A stretch of 64,000 bases of DNA from the NCBI GenBank assembly GCA_040755795.1, contig JBFLXS010000002.1, forward strand, positions 5,109 to 69,108, in the 5' to 3' direction. The stretch is from a bacterium (GTDB taxonomy: Bacteria; UBA9089; CG2-30-40-21; SBAY01). Both the position numbers and the translations under genes were made by a program. Below, piece after piece: positions 34,001-61,000 of this stretch; the first letter of the stretch is position 1, and each line of letters opens with the position of its first letter. The notes beneath the pieces were generated by a model, which was given only the letters and a program-made list of their open reading frames with translations, made no database searches and was not told the DNA's origin.

Positions 34001-37000
34001 GCGCAGTTTAGAGTTGATTCTCAACCTTATGGTTCAACTACTGTCATGGCAGTAGATGTTGAGATGGCGTCAACTATCTTCTCTATCTTGCCACAAATTG
34101 TTAATGTTTCACCTACAGAAGGAACAGTAGGAACGATAATTACCTTAGTAGGGTCAGGTTATGGAGCAATAGAAGATGTCCGAATAGATTTTGGAACCAC
34201 TCAAACTATAACTATGGCTAACTCGAATATAGATGGCACATGGACAATTACCTTTACTGTTACCACACAAGGTTATGGGATTACGACTATTAAAGCTACT
34301 GGTTCAAATACACAGGTATCAAGTATTAATTACTTTAAGATAACGCCACAAGTTGTTAGTGTCAGTCCAGAAATAGGGACAGTGGGAACAATAATTACTA
34401 TCCGTGGTACCGGGTTTATAGGCACCGAAGAAATATACATTAACTTTGGAATAACACAAACTATTACTACTACAATTTCAGATATAGAAGGGAGCTTTAC
34501 CACTACATTTACCATAGATACTCAGGTCTTTGGAACGACTACCATAGCCGCTCGTGGTAAGGTTTCTGATACAGAAGTGGTTAATTACTTCAAGATTATT
34601 CCAGAAATTTACTATGTTACTCCAACAGAAGGTAGTGTGGGAACAATACTGAGGATATCAGGTTCTGGATATAGTGGTTCGGAGAATGTTGTTATAGATT
34701 TGGGTAAGAGAGCAACCGTATCTATAGCCAATACCTCTAATTTTGGCACATTCACTATCGCCTTTACGGTTGAAATCCAACCTTATGGAACAAAGACTAT
34801 TGTTGGAAAGGGAATAGATTCTGCCGCAAAGGCTATTAATTACTTCCGTATTATACCTAATATTACAAATATAATTCCGTCAGCTTCACCTGCTAAGGGC
34901 ACAGTTGGAGCAATAGTAGTAGTAGAAGGTGATGGTTTTGGTGAGAATGAACAATTATTTGTTGAATTTGGCACTACTCATACCATTACTATAACTACAA
35001 GTAGTGAATGGGGGACATTCTCAGCTACCTTTACTGTTGATACTCAACCTTATGGCACGACTACGGTTAAGGTGATAGGTTCAACTACGCCATTAACTGC
35101 TGTCGATTATTTCACTATTCTACCTAATATCTTTGTTACCTCTCCTTCAAAAGGCACGGTAGGAACAATAATTACTATTTGTGGTAATGGTTATGCCGCA
35201 TCAGAAGAAGTGGTAATACAATTTGGCATTACAAAGACTATAACTATTACTTTGACAGATTTGATAGGGTCATGGACAACTACCTTTACAATAAATACAC
35301 AACCTTATGGTTCTACAACAATTATAGCGACAGGATTAAATTGTGGGACTTCTGCCAATAGCTCTTTCAAGATACTACCAGAATTATGGTCAGTGGTGCT
35401 TGCGGAAGGGACAGTAGGGACAATCGTTACAATCCGAGGCACAGGTTATGCGGCGAATGAGTTAGTTTACATCCACTTTGGGACAACAAATACAATCACA
35501 ATGACCTCAGCCGCAATTGAAGGTAGTTTCACGACGACATTTACCATTGATACACAACCTTATGGTTCGACGACAATCACTGCGGTAGGCTTGAGTTCAG
35601 GTGAGGCGATAAACGACTTCAAGATAGTGCCAGAATTATGGTCAGTGGAGTTAGGTGAAGAGACAGTAGGGACAATCGTCACAATCCGAGGCACCGGCTA
35701 TGCGGCGAATGAGTTAATTTACATTCACTTTGGCACAACAAATACAATCACGACGACCTCAGCCGCAATCGAAGGTAGTTGGACTACAACATTTACTATT
35801 GATACACAACCGTATGGTTCGACAACGATAACAGCACTAGGCTTGAATTCAGGTAGTGCCATAAATGACTTCAAGATATTACCAGAGTTATGGTCAGTAG
35901 TGCTTGCCGAAGGGACAGTTGGGACAATCGTCACAATCCGAGGCACCGGCTATGCGGCGAATGAGTTAATTTACATTCACTTTGGCACGACAAAGACAAT
36001 TACGACGACCTCAGCCGCAATCGAAGGTAGTTTTACGACGACATTCACTGTTGATACACAAGGATTTGGCTCGACGACAATAACCGCCGTAGGATTGAAT
36101 TCCGGCAGTGCGATAAATTACTTCAAGATAACTGTTGAGTTATATTCAGTAACACCAACAGAGGGCACAGTAGGGACAATAATTACGATTAAAGGCACAG
36201 GGTATAAAGCCAATGAAGGAATAAGGATAGACTTTGGAGTTAAATCAACAATAACTACAACACAAGCCGATGGAACAGGTAGCTGGACAGTTACCTTTAC
36301 CATCGATACACAGCCTTATGATAGAACTACAATCAAGGCAACAGGATTAACAAGTGGTGGAGAAGGGATTAATTACTTCAAGATACTGCCAGAATTATGG
36401 TCAGTGGTGCTTGCCGAAGGGACAGTTGGGACAATTGTCACGATACGAGGCACCGGGTATGCGGCGAATGAATTAGTTTATATTCACTTTGGCACAACAA
36501 AGACGATTACAACGACCTCAGCCGCAAGCGAAGGTAGTTTCACAACGACATTTACCATTGATACACAACCGTATGGTTCGACGACAATCACTGCGGTAGG
36601 TCTGAGTTCAGGTAGTGCCATAAATGACTTCAAGATATTGCCAGAGTTATGGTCAGTAGTATTAGCCGAAGGGACAGTAGGGACAATTGTGACGATACGA
36701 GGCACAGGGTATGCGGCGAATGAATTAGTTTATATCCACTTTGGCACAACAAAGACAATTACGACGACCTCAGTCGCAATCGAAGGTAGTTGGACTACAA
36801 CATTTACTATTGATACGCAACCGTATGGTTCGACGACGATAACAGCGGTTGGCTTGAATTCAGGCGAGGCGATAAATGATTTCAAGATATTGCCAGAGTT
36901 ATGGTCAGTGGTGTTAGCCGAAGGGACAATAGGGACAATTGTGACAATCCGAGGCACAGGTTATGCGGCGAATGAGTTAGTTTATATCCACTTTGGGACA

Positions 37001-40000
37001 ACGAAGACAATTACGATGACCTCAGCCGCAATCGAAGGTAGTTTCACGACGACATTTACCATTGATACACAACCTTATGGTTCGACGACAATCACTGCGG
37101 TAGGTCTGAGTTCAGGTAGTGCCATAAATGACTTCAAGATACTGCCAGAGTTATGGTCAGTGGTGTTAGCCGAAGGGACAGTTGGGACACTAGTAACGAT
37201 ACGAGGCACCGGCTATGCGGCGAATGAGTTAGTTTATATCCACTTTGGGACGACAAAGACAATTACGACGACCTCAGCCGCAATCGAAGGTAGTTTCACG
37301 ACGACATTTACCATTGATACACAACCTTATGGTTCGACGACAATCACTGCGGTAGGCTTGAGTTCAGGTGAGGCGATAAACGACTTCAAGATAGTGCTAG
37401 AATTATGGTCAGTGGAGTTAGGTGAAGGGACAGTAGGGACAATCGTCACAATCCGAGGCACCGGTTATGCGGCGAATGAGTTAGTTTATATCCACTTTGG
37501 GACGACAAAGACAATCACGACGACCTCAGCGGCAATCGAAGGTAGTTTCACAACAACATTTACTATTAATACACAACCTTATGGTTCGACAACGATAACA
37601 GCAGTCGGATTGAATTCAGGTAGTGCCATAAATGACTTTAAGATATTACCAGAGTTATGGTCAGTAGTGCTTGCCGAAGGGACAGTTGGGACAGTCGTCA
37701 CAATCCGAGGCACAGGCTATGCGGGGAATGAGTTAATTTACATTCACTTTGGCACGACAAAGACAATTACGACGACCTCAGCCGCAATCGAAGGTAGTTT
37801 CACGACGACATTTACCGTTGATACACAAGGGTTTGGCTCGACGACAATAACCGCCGTAGGATTGAATTCTAACAGTGCCATCAATTACTTCAAGATAACT
37901 GTTGAGTTATATTCAGTAACACCAACAGAGGGAACAGTAGGAACAATAATTACGATTAAAGGCACAGGGTATAAAGCCAATGAAGGGATAAGGATAGACT
38001 TTGGAGTTAAATCAACAATAACTACAACACAAGCCGATGGAACAGGTAGCTGGACAGTTACCTTTACTATCGATACACAGCCTTATGATAGAACTACAAT
38101 CAAGGCAACAGGATTAACAAGTGGTGGAGAAGGGATTAATTACTTCAAGATACTGCCAGAGTTATGGTCAGTAGTGCTTGCCGAAGGGACAGTTGGGACA
38201 ATTGTCACGATACGAGGCACCGGTTATACTGCAAATGAGTTAATTTATATTCACTTTGGGACAACAAAGACAATCACAACAACCTCAGCCACAATTGAAG
38301 GTAGTTTCACGACGACATTTACCATTGATACACAACCGTATGGTTCGACGACGATAACAGCAGTTGGATTGAATTCAGGTAGTGCGATAAATAACTTCAA
38401 GATACTGCCAGAGTTATGGTCAGTGGTGCTTGCGGAAGGGACAGTTGGGACAATCGTAACAATACGAGGCACCGGCTATGCGGCAAATGAGTTAGTTTAC
38501 ATTCACTTTGGCACAACAAAGACAATCACGACGACCTCAGCCGCAATCGAAGGTAGTTGGACTACAACATTTACTATTGATACGCAACCGTATGGTTCGA
38601 CGACGATAACAGCAGTTGGATTGAATTCAGGTAGTGCGATAAATAACTTCAAGATACTGCCAGAGTTATGGTCAGTGGTGCTTGCGGAAGGGACAGTTGG
38701 GACAATCGTAACAATCCGAGGCACAGGGTATGCGGCGAATGAGTTAGTTTACATTCACTTTGGCACAACAAAGACAATCACGACAACCTCAGCCGCAATC
38801 GAAGGTAGTTTCACGACGACATTTACCATTGATACACAACCTTATGGTTCGACGACGATAACAGCAGTTGGATTGAATTCAGGTAGTGTGATAAATTACT
38901 TTAAGATACTGCCAGAATTATGGTCAGTGGAGTTAGCCGAAGGGACAGTAAGAACAATCGTGATAATCCGAGGCACCGGCTATGCGGCGAATGAGTTAGT
39001 TTATATTCACTTTGGGACAACAAAGACGATTACAACGACCTCAGCCGCAATCGAAGGTAGTTTCACAACAACATTTACCATTGATACACAACCGTATGGT
39101 TCGACGACAATCACTGCGGTAGGCTTGAGTTCAGGTGAGGCGATAAACGACTTCAAGATACTGCCAGAATTATGGTCAGTGGTGCTTGCGGAAGGGACAG
39201 TAGGGACAATCGTTACAATCCGAGGCACCGGCTATGCGGCGAACGAGTTAATTTACATTCACTTTGGCACAACAAATACAATCACGACGACCTCAGCCGC
39301 AATCGAAGGTAGTTTCACAACGACATTTACTATTGATACACAACCGTCTGGTTCGACAACGATAACAGCAGTAGGCTTGAATTCAGGTAGTGCCATAAAT
39401 GACTTCAAGATACTGCCAGAATTATGGTATGTCAATCCAGCCGAAGGGACAGTTGGTAAGATAGTAACGATTCGAGGGACAGGATATAGTGCCAATGAGT
39501 TAATTTACATTCACTTTGGCACAACAAAGACAATCACAACGACCTCAGCCGCAATCGAAGGTAGTTTCACGACGACATTCACTGTTGATACACAAGGATT
39601 TGGCTCGACGACAATAACCGCTGTAGGATTGAATTCCGGCAGTGCGATAAATTACTTCAAGATAACTGTTGAGTTATATTCAGTAACACCAACAGAGGGC
39701 ACAGTAGGAACAATAATTACGATTAAAGGCACAGGTTATAAAGCCAATGAAGAAGTAAGGATAGACTTTGGCACAACATCAAGTATTACCACAACACAGG
39801 CAGATGGAACAGGTAGCTGGACAGTTACCTTTACCATCGATACACAACCTTATGATAGAACTACAATCAAGGCAACAGGATTAACAAGTGGTGGAGAAGG
39901 GATTAATGACTTCAAGATACTACCAGAGTTATGGTCAGTGGTATTAGCCGAAGGGACAGTTGGAACAATCGTAACGATTCGAGGCACAGGGTATGCGGCG

Positions 40001-43000
40001 AATGAGTTAGTTTACATCCACTTTGGCACAACGAAGACAATCACGACGACCTCAGCCGCAATCGAAGGTAGTTTCACAACGACATTTACTATTGATACAC
40101 AACCGTATGGTTCGACGACGATAACAGCGGTTGGCTTGAATTCAGGTAGTGCGATAAATAACTTCAAGATACTGCCAGAATTATGGTCAGTAGTGCTTGC
40201 CGAAGGGACAGTTGGGACAATCGTCACAATCCGAGGCACCGGCTATGCGGCGAATGAGTTAGTTTACATTCACTTTGGCACAACAAAGACAATCACGACA
40301 ACCTCAGCCGCAATCGAAGGTAGTTTCACGATGACATTTACTATTGATACACAACCTTATGGTTCGACGACAATCACTGCGGTAGGTCTGAGTTCAGGTA
40401 GTGCCATAAATAACTTCAAGATAGTGCCAGAATTATGGTCAGTGGAGTTAGCCGAAGGGACAGTAGGGACAATCGTTACAATCCGAGGCACCGGCTATGC
40501 GGCGAATGAGTTAGTTTACATTCACTTTGGCACAACAAAGACAATCACGACAACCTCAGCCGCAATCGAAGGTAGTTTCACGACAACATTTACCATTGAT
40601 ACACAACCGTATGGTTCGACAACGATAACAGCGGTTGGCTTGAATTCAGGTGAGGCGATAAATGACTTCAAGATACTGCCAGAATTATGGTCAGTGATGC
40701 TTGCCGAAGGGACAGTAGGAACAATCGTAACGATACGAGGCACAGGTTATGCGGCGAATGAGTTAGTCTATATCCACTTTGGGACGACAAAGACAATCAC
40801 GACGACTTCAGCCTCAATCGAAGGTAGTTTCACAACAACATTCACTATTGATACCCAATCTTATGGTTCGACAACAATTACTGCGGTAGGTTTAAATTCA
40901 GGTGAGGCGATAAATGACTTCAAGATACTACCAGAATTATGGTCAGTGGTATTAGCCGAAGGGACAGTAGGGACAATCGTTACAATCCGAGGCACAGGCT
41001 ATGCGGCGAATGAATTAGTTTACATTCACTTTGGGACAACAAAGACAATTACAACAACCTCAGTGGCAATCGAAGGTAGTTTCACAACGACATTTACCAT
41101 TGATACACAACCTTATGGTTCGACGACAATCACTGCGGTAGGTCTGAGTTCAGGTAGTGCCATAAATAACTTCAAGATACTGCCAGAATTATGGTCAGTG
41201 GTGTTAGGTGAAGGGACAGTTGGGACAATCGTAACAATCCGAGGCACAGGCTATGCGGCGAATGAATTAGTTTACATTCACTTTGGGACAACAAAGACAA
41301 TTACAACAACCTCAGTGGCAATTGAAGGTAGTTTCACAACAACATTTACTATTGATACACAACCTTATGGTTCAACAACAATCACTGCGGTAGGTCTGAG
41401 TTCAAGTAGTGCGATAAATAACTTCAAGATACTGCCAGAATTATGGTCAGTGGTGTTAGCCGAAGGGACAGTTGGGACAATCGTAACAATCCGAGGCACC
41501 GGTTATGCGGCGAATGAGTTAGTTTACATCCACTTTGGGACAACAATTACAATCACCACGACCTCAGCCGCAATCGAAGGTAGTTTCACAACGACATTCA
41601 CTATTGATACGCAACCGTATGGTTCGACGACGATAACAGCGGTCGGGTTGAATTCAGGTAGTGCCATAAATGACTTCAAGATACTGCCAGAGTTATGGTC
41701 AGTGGTGCTTGCAGAAGGGACAGTAGGGACAATCGTAACGATACGAGGCACAGGCTATGCGGCGAATGAGTTAATTTACATTCACTTTGGCACAACAAAG
41801 ACAATCACCACAACCTCAGCCGCAATCGAAGGTAGTTTCACGACAACATTTACTATTGATACACAACCGTATGGTTCGACAACGATAACAGTAGTTGGAT
41901 TGAATTCAGATAGTGCCATAAATGACTTCAAGATATTACCGGAATTATGGTCTGTAACACCAAAAGAAGGGACAGTAGGGACAATCGTAACGATACGAGG
42001 CACAGGCTATGCGGCGAATGAGTTAATTTACATTCACTTTGGCACGACAAAGACAATTACGACGACATCAGCCGCAATCGAAGGTAGTTTCACGACGACA
42101 TTCACTGTTGATACACAAGGATTTGGCTCGACGACAATAACCGCCGTAGGATTAAATTCCGGCAGTGCGATAAATTACTTCAAGATAACTGTTGAGTTAT
42201 ATTCAGTAACACCAACAGAGGGCACAGTAGGGACAATAATTACGATTAAAGGCACAGGTTATAAAGCCAATGAAGAAGTAAGGATAGACTTTGGCACAAC
42301 ATCAAGTATTACCACAACACAGGCAGATGGAACAGGTAGCTGGACGGTGACATTTACCATAAATACACAACCTTATGATACAACTACAATCAAGGCAACA
42401 GGATTAACAAGTGGTGGAGAAGGGATTAATTACTTCAAGATACTGCCAGAGTTATGGTCAGTGGTATTAGCCGAAGGGACAGTAGGAACGGTAGTTACAA
42501 TACGAGGCACCGGCTATGCGGCAAATGAGTTAGTTTACATTCACTTTGGGACAACAAAGACAATCACGACGACCTCAGCCGCAATCGAAGGTAGTTTCAC
42601 AACGACATTTACCATTGATACACAACCGTATGGTTCGACAACGATAACAGCAGTTGGCTTGAATTCGGGTAGTGCGATAAATAACTTCAAGATACTGCCA
42701 GAATTATGGTCAGTGGTGCTTGCGGAAGGAACAGTTGGGACAATCGTTACAATCCGAGGCACCGGCTATGCGGCGAATGAGTTAGTTTATATTCACTTTG
42801 GCACAACAAAGACAATCACGACGACCTCAGCCGCAATCGAAGGTAGTTTCACAACGACATTTACCATTGATACACAACCTTATGGTTCGACGACAATCAC
42901 TGCGGTAGGTCTGAGTTCAGGTAGTGCCATAAATGACTTCAAGATATTACCGGAATTATGGTCTGTGGTGCTTGCGGAAGGAACAGTGGGGACAATCGTA

Positions 43001-46000
43001 ACGATACGAGGCACAGGTTATGCGGCGAATGAGTTAATTTATATCCACTTTGGCACAACAAATACGATAACGACAACATCTGTAGATGGACAGGGTAGCT
43101 GGACAACCACCTTTACCATAGATACACAACCTTATGGCTCTACAACCATAACAGCGGTAGGGTTGAGTTCAGGTCAGGCAAGCAATGACTTTAAGATACT
43201 GCCAGAAATATGGTCAGTGGAGTTAGCCGAAGGGACAGTAGGAACAATTGTTACGATACGAGGCACAGGCTATGCGGCGAATGAATTAGTTTATATTCAC
43301 TTTGGGACAACAAAGACAATCACAACGACCTCAGCCGCAATCGAAGGTAGTTTCACGACGACATTTACCGTCGATACACAACCTTATGGTTCGACGACAA
43401 TCACTGCGGTAGGCTTGAGTTCAAGTTCTGCAATAAATGACTTCAAGATACTGCCCGAATTATGGTCAGGGGTGCTTGCCGAAGGGACAGTAGGGACAAT
43501 CGTAACGATACGAGGCACCGGTTATGCGGCGAATGAGTTAGTTTATATCCACTTTGGCACAACAAAGACAATTACCACGACCTCAGCCTCAATCGAAGGT
43601 AGTTTCACGACGACATTTACCATTGATACGCAACCGTATGGTTCGACAACGATAACAGCGGTTGGATTGAATTCAGGTAGTGCCATAAATGACTTCAAGA
43701 TATTACCGGAATTATGGTCTGTAACACCAAAAGAAGGGACAGTAGGGACAATCGTAACGATACGAGGCACAGGCTATGCGGCGAATGAGTTAATTTACAT
43801 TCACTTTGGCACAACAAAGACAATTACCACGACCTCAGCCTCAATCGAAGGTAGCTGGACGACGACATTCACTGTTGATACACAGGGATTTGGCTCAACG
43901 ACAATAACCGCTGTAGGATTAAATTCCGGCAGTGCGATAAATTACTTCAAGATAACTGTTGAGTTATATTCAGTAACACCAACAGAGGGCACAGTAGGAA
44001 CAATAATTACGATTAAAGGCACAGGTTATAAAGCCAATGAAGAAGTAAGAATAGACTTTGGCACAACATCAAGTATTACTACGACGCAGGCAGATGAAAC
44101 AGGTAGCTGGACAGTTACATTTACCATAAATACACAACCTTATGATACAACTACAATCAAGGCAACAGGATTAACCTGTCAGGGAGAAGGGATTAATTAC
44201 TTCAAGATACTGCCAGAGTTATGGTCAGTGGTGTTAGCCGAAGGGACAGTAGGGACAATCATAACGATACGAGGCACAGGCTATGCGGCGAATGAGTTAG
44301 TTTATATTCACTTTGGCACAACAAAGACAATCACGACGACCTCAGCCGCAATCGAAGGTAGCTTCACGACGACATTTACCATCGATACGCAACCTTATGG
44401 TTCGACAACGATAACAGCGGTTGGATTGAATTCAGGTAGTGCCATAAATGACTTCAAGATACTGCCAGAGTTATGGTCAGTAGTATTAGCCCAAGGGACA
44501 GTAGGGACAATTGTAACGATACGAGGTACAGGGTATGCGGCGAATGAGTTAGTCTATATCCACTTTGGCACAACAAAGACAATCACGACGACCTCAGCGG
44601 CAATCGAAGGTAGTTTCACGACGACATTTACCATCGATACGCAACCTTATGGTTCGACGACAATCACTGCGGTAGGTCTGAGTTCAGGTAGTGCCATAAA
44701 TGACTTCAAGATACTGCCAGAATTATGGTCAGTGGTGTTAGCCGAAGGGACAGTAGGGACAATCGTTACAATCCGAGGCACAGGCTATGCGGCGAATGAG
44801 TTAATTTACATCCACTTTGGGACAACAAAGACGATTACCACGACCTCATCGGCAATCGAAGGGAGCTGGACCACAACATTTACTGTTAATACACAACCAT
44901 ATGGTTCAACAACAATTACTGCGGTAGGTTTGAATTCAGGCGAGGCGATAAATGACTTTAAGATAATACCAGAATTATGGTCTGTAACTCCAACTTCCGG
45001 AACAGTAGGTACCAGTATTACTATAAGAGGCACGGGTTATTGTGGGACAGAGGTAGTTTATATCCACTTTGGTATAACCAATACGATTACTACGGTTGTT
45101 TCAGATATAGAGGGTAGTTGGACAATTACATTTACTGCTGATGCTCAACCTTATGCAACTACTACTATAATAGCAGGAGGACAGCATAATGCACATCAGG
45201 CAAGCAATTTCTTCTCTATGAAGAGTAGGATTGTTGAGATAGTGCCACCTAAAGGTGCTATTGGACTTGAAATTACAGTTTATGGTGATGGATTTGGTGC
45301 CTCAGAATCTGTCCGGATTGATTTTAGCGACAAACCGACATTAACTTATGTTACTTCTCAACGAAATGGGCAATTTACCGCTATCTTTACTGTTCCTGAT
45401 GTATCTGCTAATCAAACAGTAACGGCTACAGGTCTTACAACGGGTGCGGAAGGTATAGATACATTTACGGTTATACCTGGTATCTCATTTATATCACCTA
45501 CCTTTGGGACTATTGGAACTATAGTTGATATTAGAGGAAGTGGTTTTGGTGTAGGAAATGAAATAAGAATAGATTTTGGCACAACGAGAAGTATTGTCGT
45601 CCTAACTGCTGATACGAGTGGAAGATTTGTTACTACCTTTACTGTTGATACTCAACCTTCAGGTTCAACTACTGTTATGGTCCAGGATGTGTTAACTTCA
45701 GCTTTTGAAGATAGAATATTTGATATTATTGGAAGAATTACCTATACTACACCTCTCATTGGAACTGTTGGGACAACTATTACCGTGCAAGGAGATGGTT
45801 ATGGAGCTACCGAGACAATACGGATTAGTTTTGGAACAACTACGACTATCGGAACAGCGACTTCAAATGCCGTAGGAACTTATACCGCTATCTTCACCAT
45901 TGATACTCAACCTTATGGAAATACGACTGTGGTAATTAAAGGTTTAACTTCTGGTGAAGAAGAAATAACACAAGTATTTATTATACCTAATATTATTGTA

Positions 46001-49000
46001 GTTACACCTGATAGAGGTAGTGTGGGGACAATAATTACTTTGAAAGGAAATGGATACAAGGCGAATGAAACAGTTCAAATTGACTTTGGTAATTATTCTA
46101 CTATCACTACCACTTCAAGTGATAACATTGGTTCATTTACTACAACCTTTACTATTGATACCCAGAAATATGGTGTTACAACTATTATTGCCAGAGGATT
46201 AGATTCAAGTTATGCTGTTGATGACCTGTTTATTATACCTAATATCATCACCGTTACGCCTTCAATTGGAACTGTGGGAACGATAATAACCGTAGCCGGT
46301 AATGGTTATGGGGCGTCAGAGACAATAACCATTAGTTTTGGAACACATCCAACTATAACGACTACTTCTACGGATGAAATAGGGTCATTCACGACTACCT
46401 TTACGATAGATACCCAGAGATATGGAACAACAACGATTATTGCTACCAATATGAGTTCGGCAGAAGGCTACTTCTTCATTATTCCAAATATAATTAACAT
46501 TACACCTAAGTCTGGAACTGTGGGCACAATAATAACATTGCAAGGTAATGGATTTGGAGCCTCCAAGACTTTAAGCATAGACTTTGGAACTACATCTACT
46601 ATTCAAATTACCTCTACTTATGCCGAAGGCAGCTTTACCACTACCTGGACAATTGATACTCAACCTTATGGTATCACCACTATTACTACCCATGGAAGTA
46701 AGGATGCATCAGGAACATTTACCATCTTACCTAATATCATTCTGATTACACCGAGTTCAGGGACAGTGGGAACGATAATAACCGTGAGAGGAAATGGCTA
46801 TGCCGCATCGGATACGGTAAGAATAGCATTTGGTATCACTCCAACAATTCAATTAGTTTCTACAGAAATATATGGTAGCTTCACTACCACATTTACTATA
46901 GATACTCAACAATATGGCATAACAACGATTGTTGCTCATGGAGATGCACAAGGCATTTCGGCTCAAGGGACTATTAGTATTCAACCCAATATCATTCTTG
47001 TTACACCAACTTCAGGAACCGTAGGAACGATAATAACCTTAAGAGGAAATGGATATTGGGCATCCGAGACAATCAGGGTAGAATTTGGGACTACGCCAAC
47101 TATACAACTAACCTCTACTTATGCAGAAGGTAGTTTCACCACCACATTTACTATAGATACACAACCTTATGGCATAACAACTATTATTGCTCATGGAAAC
47201 GGGATATTATCCGCAGGCACATTAACCATATTACCTAATACCATTTTGATTACACCGAGTTCAGGGACAGTAGGAACGATAATAACTGTGAGAGGGAATG
47301 GATATGAGGCATCGTCGGTAATCAGGGTAGAATTTGGGACTACACCTACAATACAACTAACTTCTACCTATGCCGAAGGCAGCTTTACCACTACATTTAC
47401 TATTGATACACAACCTTATGGCATAACAACTATTATTGCTCATGGAAACTGGATATTAGCAGAAGGGACATTAACCATATTACCTAATATTATTCTGATT
47501 ACACCAGATTCAGGGACAGTAGGAACGATAGTAACATTAAGAGGAAATGGTTATCGGGCATCCGAGAGAATCAGGGTAGAATTTGGGACTACGCCAACAA
47601 TACAGATAACCTCTACCTACGCAGAGGGAAGTTTCACCACCACATTTACCATAGATACACAACAGGCGGGTATAACAACCATTATTGCCTATGGAGACGG
47701 AATATTAGCCGAAGGAACATTAACTGTGTCATCGAATATTGTTCTGGTTACACCAGATTCTGGAACAGTGGGAACAGTAATAACCGTGAGAGGAAATGGA
47801 TTCAGGGCATCAGATACGATAAGGATAGATTTTGGAGTAACTCGAACAATTCAATTAACTTCTACTTATGCCGAAGGGAGCTTTACTACTACATTTACGA
47901 TTGACACGCAAAACTATGGTTCTACAACAATAACAGCATCAGATTTAGATTCACGGCAGGCGGTTAGATACTTTAAGATACTGCCAGAACTTTGGTTTGT
48001 AACTTCAACCGAAGGAACAGTAGGAACTATAGTAACGATAAGAGGGACAGGATATGCGGCGAATGAGTTAGTTTATATCCACTTTGGAACGACAAAGACG
48101 ATAACAACTACATCTTCAGCCAATGAAGGTAGCTTTACCACTACATTTACTATTGATACACAACCTTATGGCTCTACAACCATAACAGCCTTAGGATTAA
48201 GTTCAGATAAGGCAAGCAACTACTTTAAGATACTATCTTCAGTTTATGAAGTTACACCGATTGAAGGGACGGTAGGAACAATCGTTACCATCAGTGGAAT
48301 GGGATATGGGGCGTTCAAAGACATAACCATACATTTTGGCACAACTAATACCATTACTACTACTTCTACGAATATAGCAGGGTCATTTACTACAACATTT
48401 ACCGTAGATACACAACCTTATGGCACGACAACGATAACGGCATTAGGTTCTGTGGCAATTAACCACTTCAAGATACTGCCAGAGTTGTGGTATGTCAATC
48501 CAGCAGAAGGGACAGTAGGTAAGGTAGTAACAATTCGAGGGACAGGCTATGCGGCGAATGAGTTAGTCTATGTCCACTTTGGCACAACTAATACAATAAC
48601 GACAACATCTGTAGATATAGAGGGTAGCTTCACAACAACATTTACCATAGATACACAACCTTATGGCTCTACAACCATAACAGCGGTAGGTTTGAGTTCC
48701 GGTCAGGCAAGCAATGACTTCAAGATACTGCCAGAATTATGGTATGTCAGTCCAGTAGAAGGGACAGGAGGGAGTATAGTAACAATTCGAGGGACAGGCT
48801 ATGCGGCGAATGAGTTAGTCTATATTCACTTTGGCACGACTAACACGATAACAACTACTTCTTCAGCCAATGAAGGTAGTTTCACCACTACATTTACCAT
48901 AGATACACAACCTTATGGTTCTACAACGATTACAGCATTAGGTTTGAGTTCAGATAAGGCAAGTAATTACTTTAAGATACTATCTTCAGTTTATCAAGTT

Positions 49001-52000
49001 ACGCCGACTGAAGGGACGGTAGGGACAATCGTTACCATAAGTGGAATGGGTTATGGGGCGTTCAAAGACATAACCATACATTTTGGCACGACAAACACCA
49101 TTACTACTACTTTATCGAACATAGCAGGTTCATTTACCACTACCTTTACCATAGATACACAACCTTATGGCACGACAACGATAACCGCATTAGGTTCTGT
49201 GGCAATTAACCACTTCAAGATACTGCCAGAGTTGTGGTATGTCAATCCAGCAGAAGGGACGGTAGGTAAGGTAGTAACGATTCGAGGGACAGGATATACG
49301 GCACAGGAATTAGTCTATATCCACTTTGGCACGACCAACACCATAACGACAACATCTGTAGATGAACAGGGTAGCTTCACAACGACATTTACCATAGATA
49401 CACAACCTTATGGCTCTACAACGATAACAGCGTTAGGCTTAAGTTCAGGTCAAGCGATAAATGACTTCAAGATATTGCCAGAATTATGGTCTGTCAATCC
49501 AGCAGAAGGGACAGTAGGGAAGGTAATAACGATTCGCGGGACAGGATATGCGGCACAGGAAACAGTTTACATTCACTTTGGCACGACAAATACGATAACG
49601 ACAGTATCATCCGATGTCCAGGGTAGCTTCACGACTACATTTACCATAGATACACAATCTTATGGCTCTACAACGATAACAGCCGTAGGTTTGAGTTCAG
49701 ATAAGGCTATTAACTACTTTATGATATTATCTTCAGTTTATGAGGTTACGCCAACTGAAGGGACGGTAGGAACAATAGTTACCATCAGTGGAATGGGATA
49801 TGGGGCGTTTAAAGATATAACCATACATTTTGGCACGACCAATACCATTACCACTACCTCATCGAATATAGCCGGTTCATTTACTACTACCTTTACTATA
49901 GATACACAGCCTTATGGGACGACAACGATAATCGCTATAGGTTCTAAGGCAATTAACTATTTCAAGATACTGCCAGAATTATGGTATGTCAATCCAGCAG
50001 AAGGGACGGTAGGTAAGATAATAACGATTCGAGGGACAGGATATGCAGCGAATGAGTTAGTTTATGTTCATTTTGGCACGACTAATACGATAACGACAAC
50101 ATCTGCAGATGTCCAGGGTAGCTTCACCACTACATTTACCATAGATACACAACCTTATGGTTCTACAACTATAACAGCGTTAGGGTTAAGTTCAGGTCAG
50201 GCGAGCAATGACTTCAAGATACTACCAGAATTATGGTCTGTCAATCCAGCAGAAGGAACAGTAGGGAAGGTAGTAACGATTCGAGGGACAGGATATGCGG
50301 CGAATGAGTTAGTCTATATCCACTTTGGGACGACAAAGACGATAACAACTACATCTGCAGATGGACAGGGTAGCTGGACAACAACATTTACCATAGATAC
50401 ACAATCTTATGGTTCTACAACCATAACAGCGGTAGGATTGAATTCAGGTTCAGCTATCAATTATTTCAAGATACTGGTAGAGTTATATTCCATTACACCG
50501 ACAGAAGGAACAGTAGGGACGATAGTTACTATTAAAGGAACAGGATATAACGCTAATGAAGAGATAAGGATAGATTTTGGAGTTAAATCAACGATAACTA
50601 CGACACAAGCAGATGAAACAGGCAGCTGGACAGCTACATTTACCATAGACACGCAACAGTATGGTAGAACAACTATTAAGGCAACTGGATTAACCTGTCA
50701 GGGAGAAGGAATTAACTACTTCAAGATACTGCCAGAATTATGGTATGTTGAGCCAGCAGAAGGAACAGTAGGAAATATCGTAACGATTCGAGGGACAGGC
50801 TATGCGGCGAATGAATTAGTCTATATCCACTTTGGCACAACTAACACGATAACGACTACATCTGTAGATATACAGGGTAGCTTCACCACTACCTTTACCA
50901 TAGATACGCAACCTTATGGCTCTACAACGATAACAGCGTTAGGGTTGAGTTCAGGACAGGCAAGCAATGACTTCAAGATACTGCGAGAATTATGGTCAGT
51001 GGTGCTTGCGGAAGGGACAGTAGGGACAATCGTAACGATACGAGGCACCGGCTATGCGGCAAATGAGTTGATTTATATCCACTTTGGGACAACAAAGACG
51101 ATTACAACGACATCAGCGGCAATTGAAGGTAGTTTCACAACGACATTTACTATTGATACACAACCGTATGGTTCGACGACAATCACTGCGGTAGGTCTGA
51201 GTTCAGGTAGTGCCATAAATAACTTCAAGATACTGCCAGAGTTATGGTCAGTGGTGCTTGCGGAAGGGACAGTAGGAACAATCGTAACGATCCGAGGCAC
51301 CGGTTATGCGGCGAATGAGTTAGTCTATATCCACTTTGGCACAACTAATACTATAACGACTACATCTTCAGATGGACAGGGTAGCTGGACAACAACCTTT
51401 ACCATAGATACACAATCTTATGGCTCTACAACGATAACAGCGTTAGGCTTGAGTTCAGATAAGGCTATTAACTACTTTATGGTATTATCTTCAGTTTATG
51501 AGGTTACGCCAACTGAAGGGACGGTAGGGACGATAGTTACCATCAGTGGAATGGGATTTGGGGCGTTCAAAGATATAACCATACATTTTGGCACGACTAA
51601 TACGATTACGACCACTGTGTCAAATATAGCAGGTTCATTTACCACAACATTTACCATAGATACACAGCCTTATGGCACGACAACGATAATCGCTTTAGGT
51701 TCGAAGGCAATTAACTACTTTAAGATACTGCCAGAATTGTGGTATGTCAATCCAGCAGAAGGGACAGTAGGAAGTATAGTAACGATACGAGGGACAGGGT
51801 ATGCGGCGAATGAGTTAGTTTATATCCACTTTGGCACAACTAATACCATAACAACTACATCTTCAGATATTCAGGGTAGTTTCACCACAACATTTACAAT
51901 TGATACCCAGAATTATGGCTCTACAACCATAACAGCTTTGGGATTAAGTTCAGGCCAGGCTATTAATGATTATAAGATAATGCCAGCTGTCTGGTATGTC

Positions 52001-55000
52001 ATTCCACCAAAGGGAACAGTTGGCAGCACGGTGATGATAAGAGGGACAGGGTATGAAGCCAATGAGTTAGTTTATATCCACTTTGGGACAACAAAGACGA
52101 TAACAACTACATCTGCAGATATAGAAGGTAGCTGGACAACTACATTTACCATAGATACACAACCTTATGGCAGCACAACGATAATCGCATTAGGGTTAAG
52201 TTCAGACAAGGCGACTAATTACTTTATGATTGTTCCAAGATTATGGTATGTGAGTCCAGTAGAAGGGACAGTAGGGAGTGTAGTAACGATTCGTGGAACA
52301 GGATATGCGGCTTATGAGCCAGTAAATATCTTCTTTGGAACTACGGTATTACCTATTATGCAAACCTTAGTAGATGTTGAAGGAAGTTTCACCACGACAT
52401 TTACTGTTGATACACAACCTTATGGCACTACGACGATAGTGGCTACTGGTGTGAATTCTCTTATTCCAGATGCTAATTATTTCAAGATACTGCCAGAATT
52501 ATGGTATGTCAGTCCAGCAGAAGGGACAGTGGGTACGGTAGTAACGATTCGAGGGACAGGCTATGCGGCGAATGAATTAGTCTATATCCACTTTGGCACG
52601 ACTAATACGATAACGACAACATCTGTAGATGGACAGGGTAGCTTCACAACTACATTTACCATAGATACACAATCTTATGGTAGCACAACCATAACAGTCT
52701 TAGGGTTAAGTTCAGGTCAGGCGAGCAATGACTTCAAGATACTGCCAGAATTATGGTCTGTCAATCCAGCAGAAGGGACAGTAGGTAAGATAGTAACGAT
52801 AAGAGGAACAGGCTATGCGGCGAATGAGTTAGTTTATATCCACTTTGGCACAACTAATACCATAACGACTACATCTTCAGCCATAGAAGGTAGCTTTACC
52901 ACTACATTTACCGTAGATACGCAGTCTTATGGTTCTACAACTATTACCGCCGTAGGGTTGAGTTCAGACAAGGCAACTAATTACTTTATGATATTATCTT
53001 CAGTTTATGAGGTTACACCGACTGAAGGAACGGTAGGGACAATCGTTACCATCAGTGGAATGGGATTTGGGGCGTTCAAAGATATAACCATACATTTTGG
53101 CACGACTAAGACGATTACTACTACTTCTTCGGATATAGCCGGTTCATTCACCACTACCTTTACTATAGATACACAACCTTATGGAACGACAACGATAACC
53201 GCTTTAGGTTCGAAGGCAATTAACTACTTCAAGATACTACCAGAATTATGGTATGTTAATCCAGCCGAAGGGACAGTAGGTCAGGTAGTAATGATTCGGG
53301 GGACAGGCTATGCGGCGAATGAGTTGGTCTATATCCACTTTGGCACAGCAAATACAATCACGACGACCTCAGCCGGAATTGAAGGTAGTTTCACGACGAC
53401 ATTTACTATTGATACACAACCTTATGGCTCTACAACCATAACAGCATTAGGTTTGAGTTCAGATAAGGCAATAAATGACTTCAAGATACTGCCAGAGTTA
53501 TGGTCAGTGGTGCTTGCGGAAGGGACAATAGGAACAATCGTAACAATCCGAGGCACCGGCTATGCGGCGAATGAGTTAATTTATATCCACTTTGGCACAA
53601 CAAATACAATCACGACGACCTCAGCGGCAATTGAAGGTAGTTTCACGACGACATTTACTATTGATACACAACCGTATGGTTCGACGACAATCACTGCGGT
53701 AGGTCTGAGTTCAGGTAGTGCCATAAATAACTTCAAGATACTGCCAGAATTATGGTCAGTGGTGTTAGCCGAAGGGACAGTGGGGACAATCGTAACAATC
53801 CGAGGCACCGGCTATGCGGCGAATGAGTTAATTTACATTCACTTTGGCACAACTAATACAATTACGATGACCTCAGCCGCAATCGAAGGTAGTTTCACGA
53901 CGACATTTACTATTGATACACAACCTTATGGCTCTACAACCATAACAGCATTAGGTTTGAGTTCAGATAAGGCAATAAATGACTTCAAGATACTGCCAGA
54001 GTTATGGTCAGTGGTGCTTGCGGAAGGGACAGTTGGAACAATTGTAACGATTCGAGGCACCGGCTATGCGGCGAATGAGTTAATTTACATTCACTTTGGG
54101 ACAACAAAGACAATCACGACGACCTCAGCCGCAATTGAAGGTAGTTTCACGATGACATTTACCATTGATACACAACCTTATGGTTCGACGACGATAACAT
54201 CAGTTGGCTTGCATTCAGGTAGTGCCATAAATGACTTCAAGATATTGCCGGAATTATGGTCTGTAACACCAAAAGAAGGGACAGTTGGGACAATCGTCAC
54301 AATTCGAGGGACAGGATATGCGGCGAATGAGTTAATTTATATCCACTTTGGGACAACAAATACAATCACGACGACCTCATCCGCAATTGAAGGTAGTTTC
54401 ACGACGACATTTACCATTGATACACAACCTTATGGTTCGACGACGATAACAGCGGTTGGATTGAATTCAGGTAGTGCCATAAATGACTTCAAGATACTAC
54501 CAGAATTATGGTCTGTCAGTCCAACAGAAGGGACAGTAGGTAAGATAGTAACAATTCGAGGAACAGGCTATGCGGCGAATGAGTTAATTTACATTCACTT
54601 TGGCACAACTAATACCATAACGACAACATCTGCAGATGGACAGGGTAGCTGGACTACAACCTTTACTATAGATACACAATCTTGTGGCTCTACAATTATT
54701 ACAGCCGTAGGGTTGAGTTCAGGTTCAGCTATCAATTACTTCAAGATAATGGCAGAATTATATTCAGTTACACCGACAGAAGGAACGGTAGGAACTATTG
54801 TTACGATTAGAGGAACAGGGTATTTAGCCAGTGAGCAAATAAGGATAGACTTTGGAGTTAAATCAACGATAACGACAACACAAGCAGATGGAATAGGTAG
54901 TTGGACAGTTACCTTTACCATAGATACCCAGGCCTATGGTAACACTACCATTAAATCTACTGGATTAATATCTCAGGGAGAAGGGATTAACTACTTCAAG

Positions 55001-58000
55001 ATACTACCAGAGTTATGGTCAGTGGTGCTTGCTGAAGGGACAGTAGGAACAATTGTTACAGTCCGAGGCACAGGCTATGCGGCGAATGAGTTGGTCTATA
55101 TCCACTTTGGCACAACTAACACGATAACGACAACATCTGCAGATATAGAAGGTAGCTTCACCACAACATTTACTATTGATACACAACCTTATGGTTCTAC
55201 AACCATAACAGCGTTAGGTTTGAGTTCAGACAAGGCAATAAATGACTTCAAGATACTGCCAGAGTTATGGTCAGTGGTGCTTGCTGAAGGGACAGTAGGA
55301 ACAATTGTTACAATCCGAGGCACAGGCTATGCGGCACAGGAATTAATTTACATCCACTTTGGGACAACAAATACAATCACGACGACCTCAGTCGCAATTG
55401 AAGGTAGTTTCACAACAACATTTACTATTGATACACAACCTTATGGTTCAACGACAATCACTGCGGTAGGTCTGAGTTCAGGTAATGCGATAAATAACTT
55501 CAAGATACTGCCAGAATTATGGTCAGTGGTGTTAGCCGAAGGGACAGTAGGGACAGTAGTGACGATACGAGGCACAGGTTATGCGGCGAATGAATTAATT
55601 TACATTCACTTTGGGACAACAAATACAATTACGACGACCTCAGCCGCAATTGAAGGTAGTTTCACAACGACATTTACTATTGATACACAGCCTTATGGTT
55701 CGACGACGATAACAGCAGTCGGCTTGAATTCAGGTAGTGCGATAAATTACTTCAAGATACTGCCAGAGTTATGGTCAGTGGTGTTAGCCGAAGGGACAGT
55801 GGGGACAGTAGTGACGATACGAGGCACCGGTTATGCGGCGAATGAGTTAATTTACATTCACTTTGGCACAACTAACACGATAACAACAACATCTGCAGAT
55901 GGACAGGGTAGCTGGACAACTACATTTACCATAGATACTCAACGCTATGGTTCAACAACCATTACTGCCGTAGGTTTGAGTTCTTCATCTGCTATTAATT
56001 ACTACAAGATAACTCCTGATTTATGGTATGTAAGTCCAACGCAAGGAACGGTTGGAACAATTGTTACCATTAGAGGCACGGGTTACTCAGTTGGTGATGT
56101 CCGAATAGACTTTGGAACGACAAGAACTATCACCACTACACAGGCGGTTGCAGAAGGTAGTTTCACCACTACATTTACTGTGAATATTCAACCTGTAGGC
56201 AAGACGACTATTGCCGCAGTGGGCATTAATGGCGAAGGAAATATTAACTTCTTTACCATCACAGGTGGAATTAGAATATCACCTACCACTGGGACAGTAG
56301 GAATAGTAGTAACGGTGTTTGGTAATGGATATGCTTCAACAGAGCAGGTGAGGGTTGATTTTGGCACCACTCCTACCCTGTCAATAGTTACAGCGGAGCC
56401 AGTAGGGACATTTATTGCTATGTTCACTGTTACCACTCAACCTTATGGCACGACAACGGTTACGGCTACTGGACCAATAACAGGGTCTGCGATAGACTTC
56501 TTTGTCATTACACCTGAATTATTTAGTGTTATACCAAATGCAGGGACAGTAGGTAGCATAGTAATAATTCGAGGCACAGGTTATGCGGCGAATGAGAGAG
56601 TTTATATCCACTTTGGGACAACTAATACGATAACTACTACATCTTCAGACATAGAAGGAAGCTGGACAACAACATTTACTATAGATACACAACCTTACGG
56701 TTCTACAACCATAATAGCGTTAGGCTTGAGTTCAGGTTCAGCTATTAACTATTGCAAGATACTGCCAGAGTTATGGTCAGTAGTGCTTGCGGAAGGGACA
56801 GTAGGGACAATCGTCACAATCCGAGGCACAGGCTATACGGCGAATGAGTTAGTTTATATTCACTTTGGCACAACTAATACGATAACCACTACATCTGCAG
56901 ATATAGAGGGTAGCTGGACAACTACATTTACTATAGATACTCAACCTTATGGTTCTACAACGATAACCGCCATAGGGTTAAGTTCGGGTTCAGCCATAAA
57001 TGACTTCAAGATACTGCCTGAATTATGGTTCGTCAATCCAGCAGAAGGAACAGTAGGCAAGATAGTGATGATAAGAGGAACAGGCTATGCGGCGAATGAG
57101 GCAGTTTATATCCACTTTGGCACAACAAAGACGATAACAATGGTATCTTCAGTTATTGAAGGTAGTTTCACAACAACATTTACCATAGATACACAACCTT
57201 ATGGCACAACGACCATTGTTGCCTCAGGATTGAATTCAGGAGAGGCGATTAATTACTTCAGAGTCCTGCCGGAGGTATTCAGTGTTACTCCGAAAGAAGG
57301 CACAGTGGGAACAATAGTTACTATTCGTGGGACAGGATATGGTGCAAATAAGATAATTAATGTTCACTTTGGAACAACAAATACTATTACTACGGCGAGT
57401 TCAGATATAATTGGTTCATTTACCGCAACATTTACTGTGGATACGCAACCTTATGGCACAACAACTATTGTTGCTACAGGTTGTTCGGCAATTAACTACT
57501 TCAAGATATTACCAGATGTTTGCTATGTTACGCCTACATCAGGGACTGTGGGAAGTATTGTGACGGTTCGTGGAACAGGCTATGCGGCTTCAGAAGAGGT
57601 CTATGTCCATTTTGGCACAACAAAGACGATTACAACTACGGTTTCTGCTCAAGAAGGTAGCTTCACCACGACATTTACTGTGGATACACAAGTTTATGGC
57701 ACAACAACAATTATTGCGGTAGGATTAGGTTCAGGAGAGGCGATTAATTATTATAGGATAACTCCTGATTTGTGGTATGTCAATCCACAACAAGGCACAG
57801 TAGGAACAATTGTTACGATTAAAGGCACAGGTTATACCCCTGGTGAGGTGCGAATAGACTTTGGCACAACTCAAACTATTACTACTACTCAGGCAGATAA
57901 TACAGGTAGTTTGACGACGACATTTACCATAGATACGCAACCATTAGGTATAACAACTATTGCGGCAGCTGGTGCTAATGCTGAAAGAAATATTAACTTC

Positions 58001-61000
58001 TTCACGATTACTGGTGGTATTAGAATATCGCCAACTACGGGTTCAGTAGGAACGATAGTAACCGTGTTTGGTAATGGTTATGCGGCAACAGAACAAGTCC
58101 GTGTTGATTTTGGGACAACACCAACATTAGCCATAACAACAACTGATAATATAGGTTCATTTACGGTAACCTTTACCGTAACGACACAACCTTATGGAAC
58201 AACAACTATCATTGTTACCGGAGCAGAGGCAGGTTCTGTCTGCATTACCTTCTTCATCACGCCAGATGTATTTATGGTTAGTCCAGATACAGGAACAGTG
58301 GGAACAGTAATTACTATTCGTGGGACAGGTTATGCTGGGAGAGAAGATGTTTATATCCACTTTGGCACAACGCAGACGATTACCATTACTACTTCAGCTA
58401 TTGAAGGCAGTTTCACGACGACATTTACCATTGATACACAGCCGTATGGTAGCACGACCATTACGGGATTAGGCTTAAATTCCAGTTCAGCTATTAATTA
58501 CTTTAAGATTATACCGCAGATTATTCAGGTTACACCAGATACAGGAACAGTTGGAACAATAATTACGATTCGTGGGACAGGATATGGAAATGGCGAAGAT
58601 GTCTTCATCCACTTCGGCACGACACAAACGATTACCAGGACTATTACCGATATAGAAGGCAGCTGGACTACAACATTTACTATTGATACACAACCGTATG
58701 GGACGACGACAATTACTTCTGTGGGAGAGACTACACCGCAGGCGATTAATTACTTTAAGATTACACCAGAAATAATTAGGGTTACGCCAACTCAAGGCAC
58801 AGTGGGAACAATAGTAACAATTCGTGGGACAGGTTATGCCGGGACAGAAGAAGTCTATATCCACTTTGGCACAACGAAGACGATTACGACTACGGTTTCA
58901 GATATCGCTGGTAGCTGGACAACAACATTTACGATTGACCCACAGGCTTATGGCTCAACAACCATTACTGCGCTTGGATTACGGTCAGATTCAAATATTG
59001 CTTACTTCAAAGTGTTAGGCGAATTATACTTAGTTTCACCGAAGGAAGGGACCGTGGGGACGATAGTAACCATTAGTGGAACAGGATATCAATCCAGTGA
59101 GACTGTCCAGATAAGTTTTGGCAACAAGACGACGATAACTACAGGTCATGTAATAGACACAGGCGTCTTTATCCTTACATTTACAATTGATACGCAGGTT
59201 TATGGGTCAACAACAATTATTGCCACTGGTCTCTCATCAGCCATAGAAGGTATTAATTACTTTAAGATAATACCAGATGTAATTATGGTGAGTCCATCAA
59301 TTGGGACTGTGGGGACAATCGTTACCATTCGTGGGACTGGTTATGCCGGATTAGAAGAGTTGTATGTCCATTTTGGCACGACAAAGACAATTACTACAAC
59401 GACTTCAGATATGGAAGGTAGCTGGACAACAACATTTACTATTGATACACAACCGTATGGTTCAACAACAATTACCGTGTTAGGATTTGGTTCTGGAGAG
59501 GATATTTCCTACTTTAAGATAACACCTCAAATTTGGGATGTTACACCGACTTCAGCGACAGTAGGAACAATAATTACCATTCGTGGCACAGGTTATGCCG
59601 GGACAGAGGAGATTTATATCCACTTTGGCACGAATAAGACGATTACTACTACTGTTTCTGCCATAGAAGGAAGTTGCACAACAACATTTACCATTGATAC
59701 ACAACCTTATGGCACGACAACGATTCTCGCAGGAGGCTTGAAGTCTGATGAGGCAATTAATTACCTGAAGATAACTCCACAATTAGTTTCAGTAACACCA
59801 ACAGAGGGAACAATAGGAACACTAATAACTATTTGTGGAACAGGTTATGCCAGCAGTGAGACAGTTTATATCCACTTTGGGATACGCAATACTATTACCA
59901 CTACTGTTTCAGGCATCGAAGGAAGTGTGACAACTACCTTTACCATTGATACTCAACCTTATGGAACGACAACTGTGGTAGCATTAGGCTTGAAGTCCGC
60001 AGTTGCCATTAATTACTTTAAGATATTACCGGCATTGTTTATGGTCAGTCCAACAGAAGGGACTGTGGGCACAATAGTAACAATAAGAGGTAATGGTTAT
60101 ATTGGGACAGAAGAGATTTATATCCACTTTGGCACAACAAGGACGATTGCCACGGTTATCTCAGAGCTACAGGGAAGCTTTACCACAACATTTACAGTGG
60201 ATACACAACCTTATGGGTCAACAACTATCACAGGCGTTGGTAGTTGTGGTGAGTCAATTAACTACTTTAAGATTACACCAGAGTTGTGGTTTGTAACTCC
60301 AACAAAAGGAACAATAGGAACAATTCTAACTATTCGTGGAACTGGTTATACGCCAGGTGAGGTGCGAATAGACTTTGGCACGACAGAATCTATCACCCTT
60401 ACTCAAGCAGAAATAGAGGGAAGTTTCACCACGACATTTACCGTAAATACACAAATATTAGGTAAGACAACAATTAGAGCCACAGGTATTAATCAGGAAA
60501 CCAATATTAACTATTTTGTGATTATTGGTGGAGTTGAGGTATCGCCGACATCTGGCACGGTTGGGTCAATAGTGACGGTATGTGGAACAGGATATGCGGC
60601 AAGTGAAGAGATAAGGATTAATTTTGGCACAACACCTTCAATTACGAAAGTTATCGCTACTGAAGCGGGAACATTTACCGTAACCTTTACCATTGATACA
60701 CAACCTTATGGCACCACCACCGTTAGAACGATAAGTTCAGATACAGGTTCAGCCACAACTTACTTTACCATTCTACCCGACCTGTGGCAAGTTAGTCCAT
60801 CAGAAGGCACAGTAGGAACAATAGTTACTATTCGTGGGACAGGTTATGCCTATCAAGAAACAGTTTCGATACATTTTGGAACAACATTTACCATTACCAC
60901 AGCTCAAGGTTCTAAACAAGGTAGCTGGACGACGAAATTCACAGTAGATATGCAACCTTGTGGTAGCACCACGATTACTGCCGTAGGTGATACATCAGGC

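Follow-up and report, generated by a model that had tools for sequence, protein, structure and literature searches.

Nested multi-domain periodicities in a giant bacterial IPT/TIG repeat gene and their probable origin by block duplication

The 64,000-nucleotide stretch analysed here, referred to as the window, comprises positions 5,109–69,108 of the forward strand of contig JBFLXS010000002.1 (GenBank assembly GCA_040755795.1; GTDB lineage Bacteria, UBA9089, CG2-30-40-21, SBAY01). It covers part of a giant gene that encodes 249 or more tandem IPT/TIG-like immunoglobulin (Ig)-fold domains of ~84 amino acids each, and in one part of this array a distinct marker unit recurs every 7 or 10 units. 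The window consists of a single reading frame on the plus strand, from nt 2 to 64000, with 21,333 codons and zero stops. Because this frame runs off both ends, no open reading frame (ORF) is wholly contained in the window. In a six-frame stop count the remaining frames have 855–2595 stops each. A profile hidden Markov model (HMM) built from the window's own translation divides the frame into 249 consecutive units of 81–89 amino acids, with a few longer.

Pfam IPT/TIG (PF01833) is matched by 40 of 150 sampled units at E≤0.01 (best 1.2e-7), and the marker unit scores 21.2 bits, just above the curated cut-off of 20.9. Many units fall below the PF01833 threshold, and the domains are therefore assigned to a divergent TIG subfamily. 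The family profile also matches the TIG-like domain of CGTase (E=0.003). An AlphaFold2 model of the marker unit, with the window's own units as the input alignment, is a seven-stranded Ig-like beta-sandwich (predicted local distance difference test, pLDDT, 91.6). Compared with the PDB using Foldseek, this model gives weak matches to Ig-like sandwiches, including the IPT/TIG domain of EBF3 and domain D of CGTase, all at E>1e-3. Both properties that define IPT/TIG membership, a sequence match above threshold and a seven-stranded Ig-like fold, are present. The units are Thr-rich and acidic and form long runs of Ig-like beta-sandwiches. The protein is repetitive and fibre-like, and probably extracellular.

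The markers punctuate a block of near-identical units, array 2, and two diverged relatives lie further downstream.

35372–44962, plus strand: array 2, 38 units (indices 138–175) of the near-identical 'ILPELWSVVLAEG...YIHFG' type, with five markers interspersed
36128–36382, plus strand: marker copy 1 (D-type, 85 amino acids, unit 141), from translation and HMM segmentation, as are copies 2–5
37895–38149, plus strand: marker copy 2 (unit 148)
39662–39916, plus strand: marker copy 3 (unit 155; TTS/EV subtype)
42185–42439, plus strand: marker copy 4 (unit 165)
43952–44206, plus strand: marker copy 5 (unit 172)
35876–36127, 37643–37894, 39410–39661, 41933–42184 and 43700–43951, plus strand: pre-marker variant (…VDTQGFGS…AINYFK), from translation
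50471–50725, plus strand: diverged D-type marker (unit 198), from clustering; 87% amino acid identity to unit 141
54746–55000, plus strand: diverged D-type marker (unit 215), 17 units beyond unit 198

The 38 tandem units of array 2, at 252 or 255 nt, belong to a single length class of monomers. The five markers are spaced at exactly 1767, 1767, 2523 and 1767 nt, which correspond to 7, 7, 10 and 7 units of 252 nt once the additional codon of the marker is included. Repeat finding independent of the segmentation agrees, showing 252-nt steps that lengthen to 507 nt wherever a marker is skipped. A preliminary description of this DNA had reported the marker peptide at five positions with these spacings, and translation places it there (the starts given were 3 nt later, since the leading Ile was omitted). 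The diverged versions that it placed at about 50470 and 54750 are units 198 and 215. Unsupervised clustering of the 249 units recovers one family consisting of exactly units 141, 148, 155, 165, 172, 198 and 215; outside it, the closest unit reaches only 67% identity. If five markers are placed randomly among 38 units, the chance of three of the four gaps being equal is 0.01–0.02. In array 2, the unit before each of the five markers ends in FTVDTQGFGSTTITAVGLNS(G/N)SAINYFK. This had been described as always the case, which holds within array 2 but not for units 198 and 215, where the preceding unit retains only ...AINYFK.

Markers differ from the standard units of array 2 by ~35% in protein sequence. 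They do not differ from them in charge, isoelectric point (pI) or distance to the family consensus, comparisons that rule out the marker as a more 'ancestral' or differently charged domain. The standard units lack Pro10, which is otherwise near-invariant in the domain family (SVVLAEG replaces SVTPTEG); this residue is kept in the marker and in some pre-marker units.

Marker copies 1 and 2 are 98.4% identical in DNA, with four differences, all synonymous, and copies 3 and 4 are 96.9% identical. Synonymous divergence (dS) between markers is 0.067 for units 141/148 and 0.086 for units 155/165, with a mean of 0.20, compared with 0.42 between standard units. Non-adjacent marker copies are younger than the divergence among the standard units. 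Pre-marker units are likewise close across the same intervals (140/147, 95.2%; 164/171, 96.0%). One of them, unit 154, has a 5' half of the type found in a separate array downstream (array 3). The markers and their flanks lie within extended tracts of low divergence.

35424–36527, plus strand: low-divergence tract, 1104 nt, 94.5% identity, paired with 37191–38294 at offset 1767; about four units including a marker
39464–40452, plus strand: low-divergence tract, 989 nt, 94.3% identity, paired with 41987–42975 at offset 2523; includes a marker
41753–42489, plus strand: low-divergence tract, 737 nt, 94.8% identity, paired with 43520–44256 at offset 1767; includes a marker

A further tract of 1050 nt occurs at offset 3534, the 14-unit diagonal. 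The longest tracts of array 2 (737–1104 nt, 3–4.4 units) are found only on the 7-, 10- and 14-unit diagonals and every one holds a marker, while tracts on the single-unit diagonal (offset 252) reach at most 448 nt. Units also correspond in order between blocks. Positions −3 to 0 relative to the marker share diagnostic synonymous haplotypes in units 138–141, 145–148 and 152–155, as do positions 0 to +2 in units 155–157 and 165–167. The best match lies in register for 12 of 28 standard units, compared with 4.8±2.4 expected (p≈0.007). Protein identity by offset within array 2 peaks at 7, 17 and 24 units (0.90–0.92 versus 0.84), and for standard units alone identity at offset 7 is 0.903 versus 0.891. 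The period suggested earlier is also visible in raw nucleotide autocorrelation, which peaks at 1767 nt (0.82, versus 0.76 at 252), a value inflated by the 3-nt shift of register that each 85-amino-acid marker introduces; unit-aligned identities were therefore used instead. Array 2 thus shows several consecutive domains copied together at an offset of more than one domain, as in multi-domain tandem duplication. The data support a need for duplication or transfer of multi-unit segments, and growth by multi-unit duplication, as first proposed, is supported by the marker dS, the tracts and the in-register matches.

The opposite could be imagined, namely that the 85-amino-acid units are old domains resisting homogenisation, that the standard units expanded singly and that the regular spacing is a coincidence. 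Single-unit duplications do exist. Units 150/151 and 160/161 are adjacent mutual best pairs, and tracts of 408–448 nt occur at offset 252; therefore single-unit events also occurred, contrary to the preliminary claim that the array did not grow one unit at a time. The absence of positional correspondence in block interiors would also suit such relic domains. However, marker–marker dS (mean 0.20) is less than half that between standard units; the flanking units correspond in order, and chance rarely produces the spacing observed. We consider this history very unlikely.

The interior of array 2 is more complex. The standard units of 35372–44962 are ~95% identical in protein and ~89% in DNA, with a non-synonymous divergence (dN) of 0.038, dS of 0.42 and dN/dS ≈0.09. 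The block, originally termed homogenized, is homogenized solely at the protein level. Of the 46 informative biallelic sites among the standard units, 36 fall at third codon positions, and the synonymous variants are shuffled among units in a mosaic fashion. Failures of the four-gamete test climb with distance, from 0.48 (<40 nt) to 0.87 (160–200 nt), and the minimum number of recombination events (Rm) is at least 23 within a 252-nt unit. This mosaicism fits short-tract conversion among many near-identical donors. The marker, being ~35% different in protein, would exchange only with other markers, so that marker and flanks keep register. Synonymous diversity may itself be favoured, limiting recombination.

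There are also signs of exchange between arrays over long range, at 42944–43195, 50978–51229, 53486–54493 and 55253–55756. Unit 168 of array 2 best matches unit 201 of array 3, and A-type units inside array 3 (200, 210–213 and 217–218) best match array-2 units at 0.92–0.94.

Several observations weigh against block duplication as the source of the period in array 2. At non-marker positions in-register identity is 0.86–0.89, barely above the 0.85–0.86 found out of register, and a positional permutation test is weak (p=0.05–0.26). Aligning the blocks to each other yields ordered correspondence at only ~2–4 of seven positions. The other three to five have in-register identity at the array background, and the copying of whole 7-unit blocks as such cannot be shown. 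The high-identity tracts of ~0.7–1.1 kb could be later marker-to-marker gene-conversion tracts and not relics of duplication, and at a dS of 0.42 recurrent mutation may account for some of the four-gamete failures. Finally, no independent assembly or long-array orthologue confirming the layout was found in the searched collections. As to the comparison with satellite higher-order repeats (HORs) made in the preliminary description, array 2 has their reproducible multi-monomer period. In-register identity far above within-copy identity is a feature of every position in such satellites, but here only of the marker, the pre-marker and some flanks, and the likeness fails on this point. Array 2 is a decayed HOR and not a clean one. 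An internal 3-unit duplication was considered as the source of the extra units in the 10-unit block; units 157/160 (0.933) hint at it, and pairs 158/161 and 159/162 give no support, so that this candidate was set aside.

Since the array is long and repetitive, the whole arrangement could in principle have been mis-joined or artificially expanded by the assembler. Public relatives all lie on broken contigs of 1–5 kb, and the searched collections contain no independent copy. However, exact repeats do not exceed 186 nt anywhere in the window, or 135 nt within array 2, so that an assembler would have met no identical kilobase-scale repeats that it could collapse or mis-join. Most differences between copies are synonymous (proportions of non-synonymous and synonymous differences, pN and pS, of 0–0.04 and 0.07–0.32), a pattern unlike sequencing error, and the frame extends over 64 kb without a frameshift or stop. 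Taken together, the short exact repeats, synonymous differences and intact frame make mis-assembly highly improbable.

Other parts of the gene are also periodic.

24350–27877, plus strand: array 1, a clean HOR of two 7-unit copies (units 95–101 and 102–108) with a period of 1758 nt
47978–50218, plus strand: head of array 3, units 188–196, three copies of a 3-unit HOR with an 81-amino-acid unit (ILSSVYEVTPTEG…SGMGYGAFKDITIHFG)
54746–62266, plus strand: old 17-unit periodicity, units 215–231 versus 232–245, with best-match offsets of 7, 10 and 17
56009–56506, 57758–58255 and 60272–60769, plus strand: two-unit module (ITPDLWYV… + TITGGIRISP…) at units 220, 227 and 237, with spacings of 7 and 10 units
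62480–64000, plus strand: end of the array, two atypical TIG-like domains followed by at least three copies of a ~115-amino-acid unannotated module (…LRWTGESGYTQDGLNPEEG…YRIRYYD…)

Array 1 shows the classic HOR pattern, with in-register identity (0.905) far above that out of register (0.66) and all seven best matches at ±7 units. It has its own pair of 86-amino-acid markers; such units begin at 22595, 24599 and 26357, and an older 8-unit copy lies upstream (22595–24598). The longest exact repeat of the window is also in this array (24830/26588). Some 20 kb downstream of array 1, units 184–186 (46979–47725) are nevertheless of its type (0.76–0.80 DNA identity with units 95 and 102); they are a dispersed copy or an old segmental duplication. 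In the third array the 81-amino-acid unit (ILSSVYEVTPTEG…GMGYGAFKDITIHFG) always follows a unit that ends in …SSDKA.NYF(K/M), and two more dispersed 81-amino-acid units occur at 51482 and 52991.

The diverged markers 198 and 215 belong to the older 17-unit periodicity. The offset-17 correspondence across units 215–245 has a permutation p≈5e-5. D-type units fall at 198, 215 and, weakly, 232 (a weak D-like unit at 59012), E-like units fall at 208, 225 and 242, and the pairs 225/242 and 226/243 correspond. The spacing of the two-unit module, 7 and then 10 units, is the same pattern as that of the array-2 markers. In the 115 older divergent units no periodicity was found at any offset, identity being flat at 0.41–0.46, and a global 7-unit super-repeat across the older units was rejected on this basis. 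The ~115-amino-acid module at the end of the array has no Pfam match. It is also repeated, at 30–36% identity, in a relative (P0036), and provides context outside the HOR.

Nearest relatives are protein fragments of at most 50% identity, mostly labelled as metagenome-assembled genomes (MAGs) of Candidatus Desantisbacteria. A profile search of 1.84 billion representative proteins identified 7,963 proteins with this domain subtype, none with more than 74 units. A 38-nt marker-specific string common to all five copies is absent from the searched genome and metagenome contig collections, and degenerate protein-pattern searches (the C-terminal region; pre-marker plus marker plus standard unit) gave no match. 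The relative P0036 (4177 amino acids) has a signal-peptide-like N-terminus and NHL, FlgD_ig and PD40 domains. In another, P0038, an 11-unit block is duplicated, and other fragmentary relatives show single-unit duplications only, or none. The genomic context of a C-terminal homologue (P0008) is uninformative.

The recurrence of the same numbers raises a second question, whether the spacing is itself a selected trait, with selection keeping a specialised domain every 7–10 (17) domains of the fibre, in the way that super-repeats in titin and nebulin follow a structural period. A 7-unit period occurs in three arrays built from different unit types, at 1758 nt (24350), 1767 nt (36128) and 1749 nt (56009–57758). 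The sum 7+10=17 recurs for the markers (148/155/165), the two-unit module (220/227/237), the D-type units (198/215/(232)) and the E-like units (208/225/242). This recurrence of 7 and 17 is the sole hint towards a functional period; the markers are in addition under purifying selection (dN/dS 0.19), with no non-synonymous change between 141 and 148. However, the 115 older divergent units are aperiodic, the spacings are irregular overall (8, 7 / 7, 7, 10, 7 / 26, 17, 17 / 3, 3, 7, 6), and markers resemble standard units in the properties compared above. Fragmentary relatives lack periods of 7 or 10 units: where any period is seen, it is one of 11. Selection on the spacing is on balance unlikely. 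A more specific version, in which the selected 7-, 10- and 17-domain spacings would give a bacterial Ig-domain fibre, roughly a micrometre long, a structural super-repeat with the distinct domains as periodic hinges or docking sites, is likewise unlikely. If true, it would be a prokaryotic analogue of the super-repeats of titin and nebulin.

The marker periodicity is instead probably what remains of tandem duplications, in frame and in register, that copied multi-domain blocks within a giant gene. Its periodic anatomy, relative ages, tract positions and mosaicism, as well as purifying selection, are observed directly. Array 1 (0.905 versus 0.66), the 3-unit and 17-unit periods and the 11-unit block of P0038 are counted as the same process and so as support for block duplication. 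In the order of events that we infer, a segment of ~7 units (1767 nt), consisting of the 85-amino-acid marker, its upstream neighbour and about five near-identical standard domains, would have been copied several times, through replication slippage or unequal homologous recombination involving repeats out of register. A 3-unit gain would have extended one copy to 10 units. Short-tract gene conversion or recombination among the standard units, with occasional single-unit duplications, would later have scrambled the block interiors, while the divergent marker and its immediate flanks, able to exchange only with other markers, may have kept their register. Purifying selection on every domain would have kept the protein nearly constant as synonymous sites diverged. 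This mechanism is not new, and the gene is a very large prokaryotic case of a known mode of multi-domain duplication.

Expansion by several domains at once is common in domain repeats, with steps of seven in nebulin (Björklund, Ekman & Elofsson 2006, PMC1553488), and the 7-module super-repeat of nebulin and the 7- and 11-domain super-repeats of titin are the classic cases (PMC7754682; PMC10665226). As in these proteins, domains of one family are arranged in tandem in one polypeptide and internal similarity peaks at multi-domain offsets (here 7, 10, 17 and 3); the number seven itself matches the period of nebulin. Unlike them, the gene belongs to a prokaryotic host without introns, which excludes exon shuffling, and its scale is far larger (at least 249 domains). 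In addition, periodicity is seen only in its young sub-arrays, where part of it has been lost, and the protein has no known periodic binding partner.

Alpha-satellite-type HORs combine a monomer with a multi-monomer period, and their copies are 95–100% identical to one another. The same hierarchy is found in this gene, probably from unequal crossing-over, and array 1 has the corresponding excess of in-register identity. However, the gene codes for protein and is under purifying selection (dN/dS about 0.1), has only 2–5 block copies with 85–98% identity, and in array 2 keeps register only at the marker, the pre-marker and some flanks.

Giant tandem-repeat scaffold proteins have been described in uncultivated bacteria (West-Roberts et al. 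2023, bioRxiv 10.1101/2023.11.21.568195), and a preprint on Omnitrophota states that synonymous substitutions have blurred the nucleotide tandems of such genes, whereas the architecture of the proteins is retained (2026, 10.64898/2026.06.07.730766). The present gene resembles these in its very long ORF dominated by one domain, its synonymous blurring and the fragmentation of its relatives in short-read assemblies. Its domain is IPT/TIG, however, and not HEAT, WD, dockerin or TSP3, and its nearest relatives are annotated as Candidatus Desantisbacteria, not Omnitrophota. Neither of these two papers describes a multi-unit periodicity.

Long runs of Ig-like beta-sandwiches, Thr-rich and acidic, are a feature shared with fibrillar adhesins, of which SiiE and MpIBP are examples with Ig-like stalks. 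The signal-peptide-like N-terminus of P0036 is an indirect hint in the same direction, both ends of the gene lying outside the window. Compared with the largest characterised adhesins, the gene has ~5-fold more domains. Fibrillar adhesins with Ig-like stalk domains are described by Monzon et al. (2021, PMC8286594).

The periodicity is of less interest than the gene itself, which exceeds 21,333 codons and carries at least 249 TIG domains: from public data, this family is known only as fragments of up to 74 units. The marker units provide natural landmarks for checking long-read assemblies and for measuring copy-number change between strains. Array 2 also illustrates that a homogenized look at the protein level can hide age at the DNA level (dS 0.42). 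As a whole, the window offers a clear prokaryotic, nucleotide-level example of how a giant repeat gene grows, by block duplications at nested scales of 3, 7, 10 and 17 domains, whose traces gene conversion then blurs while purifying selection remains strong.

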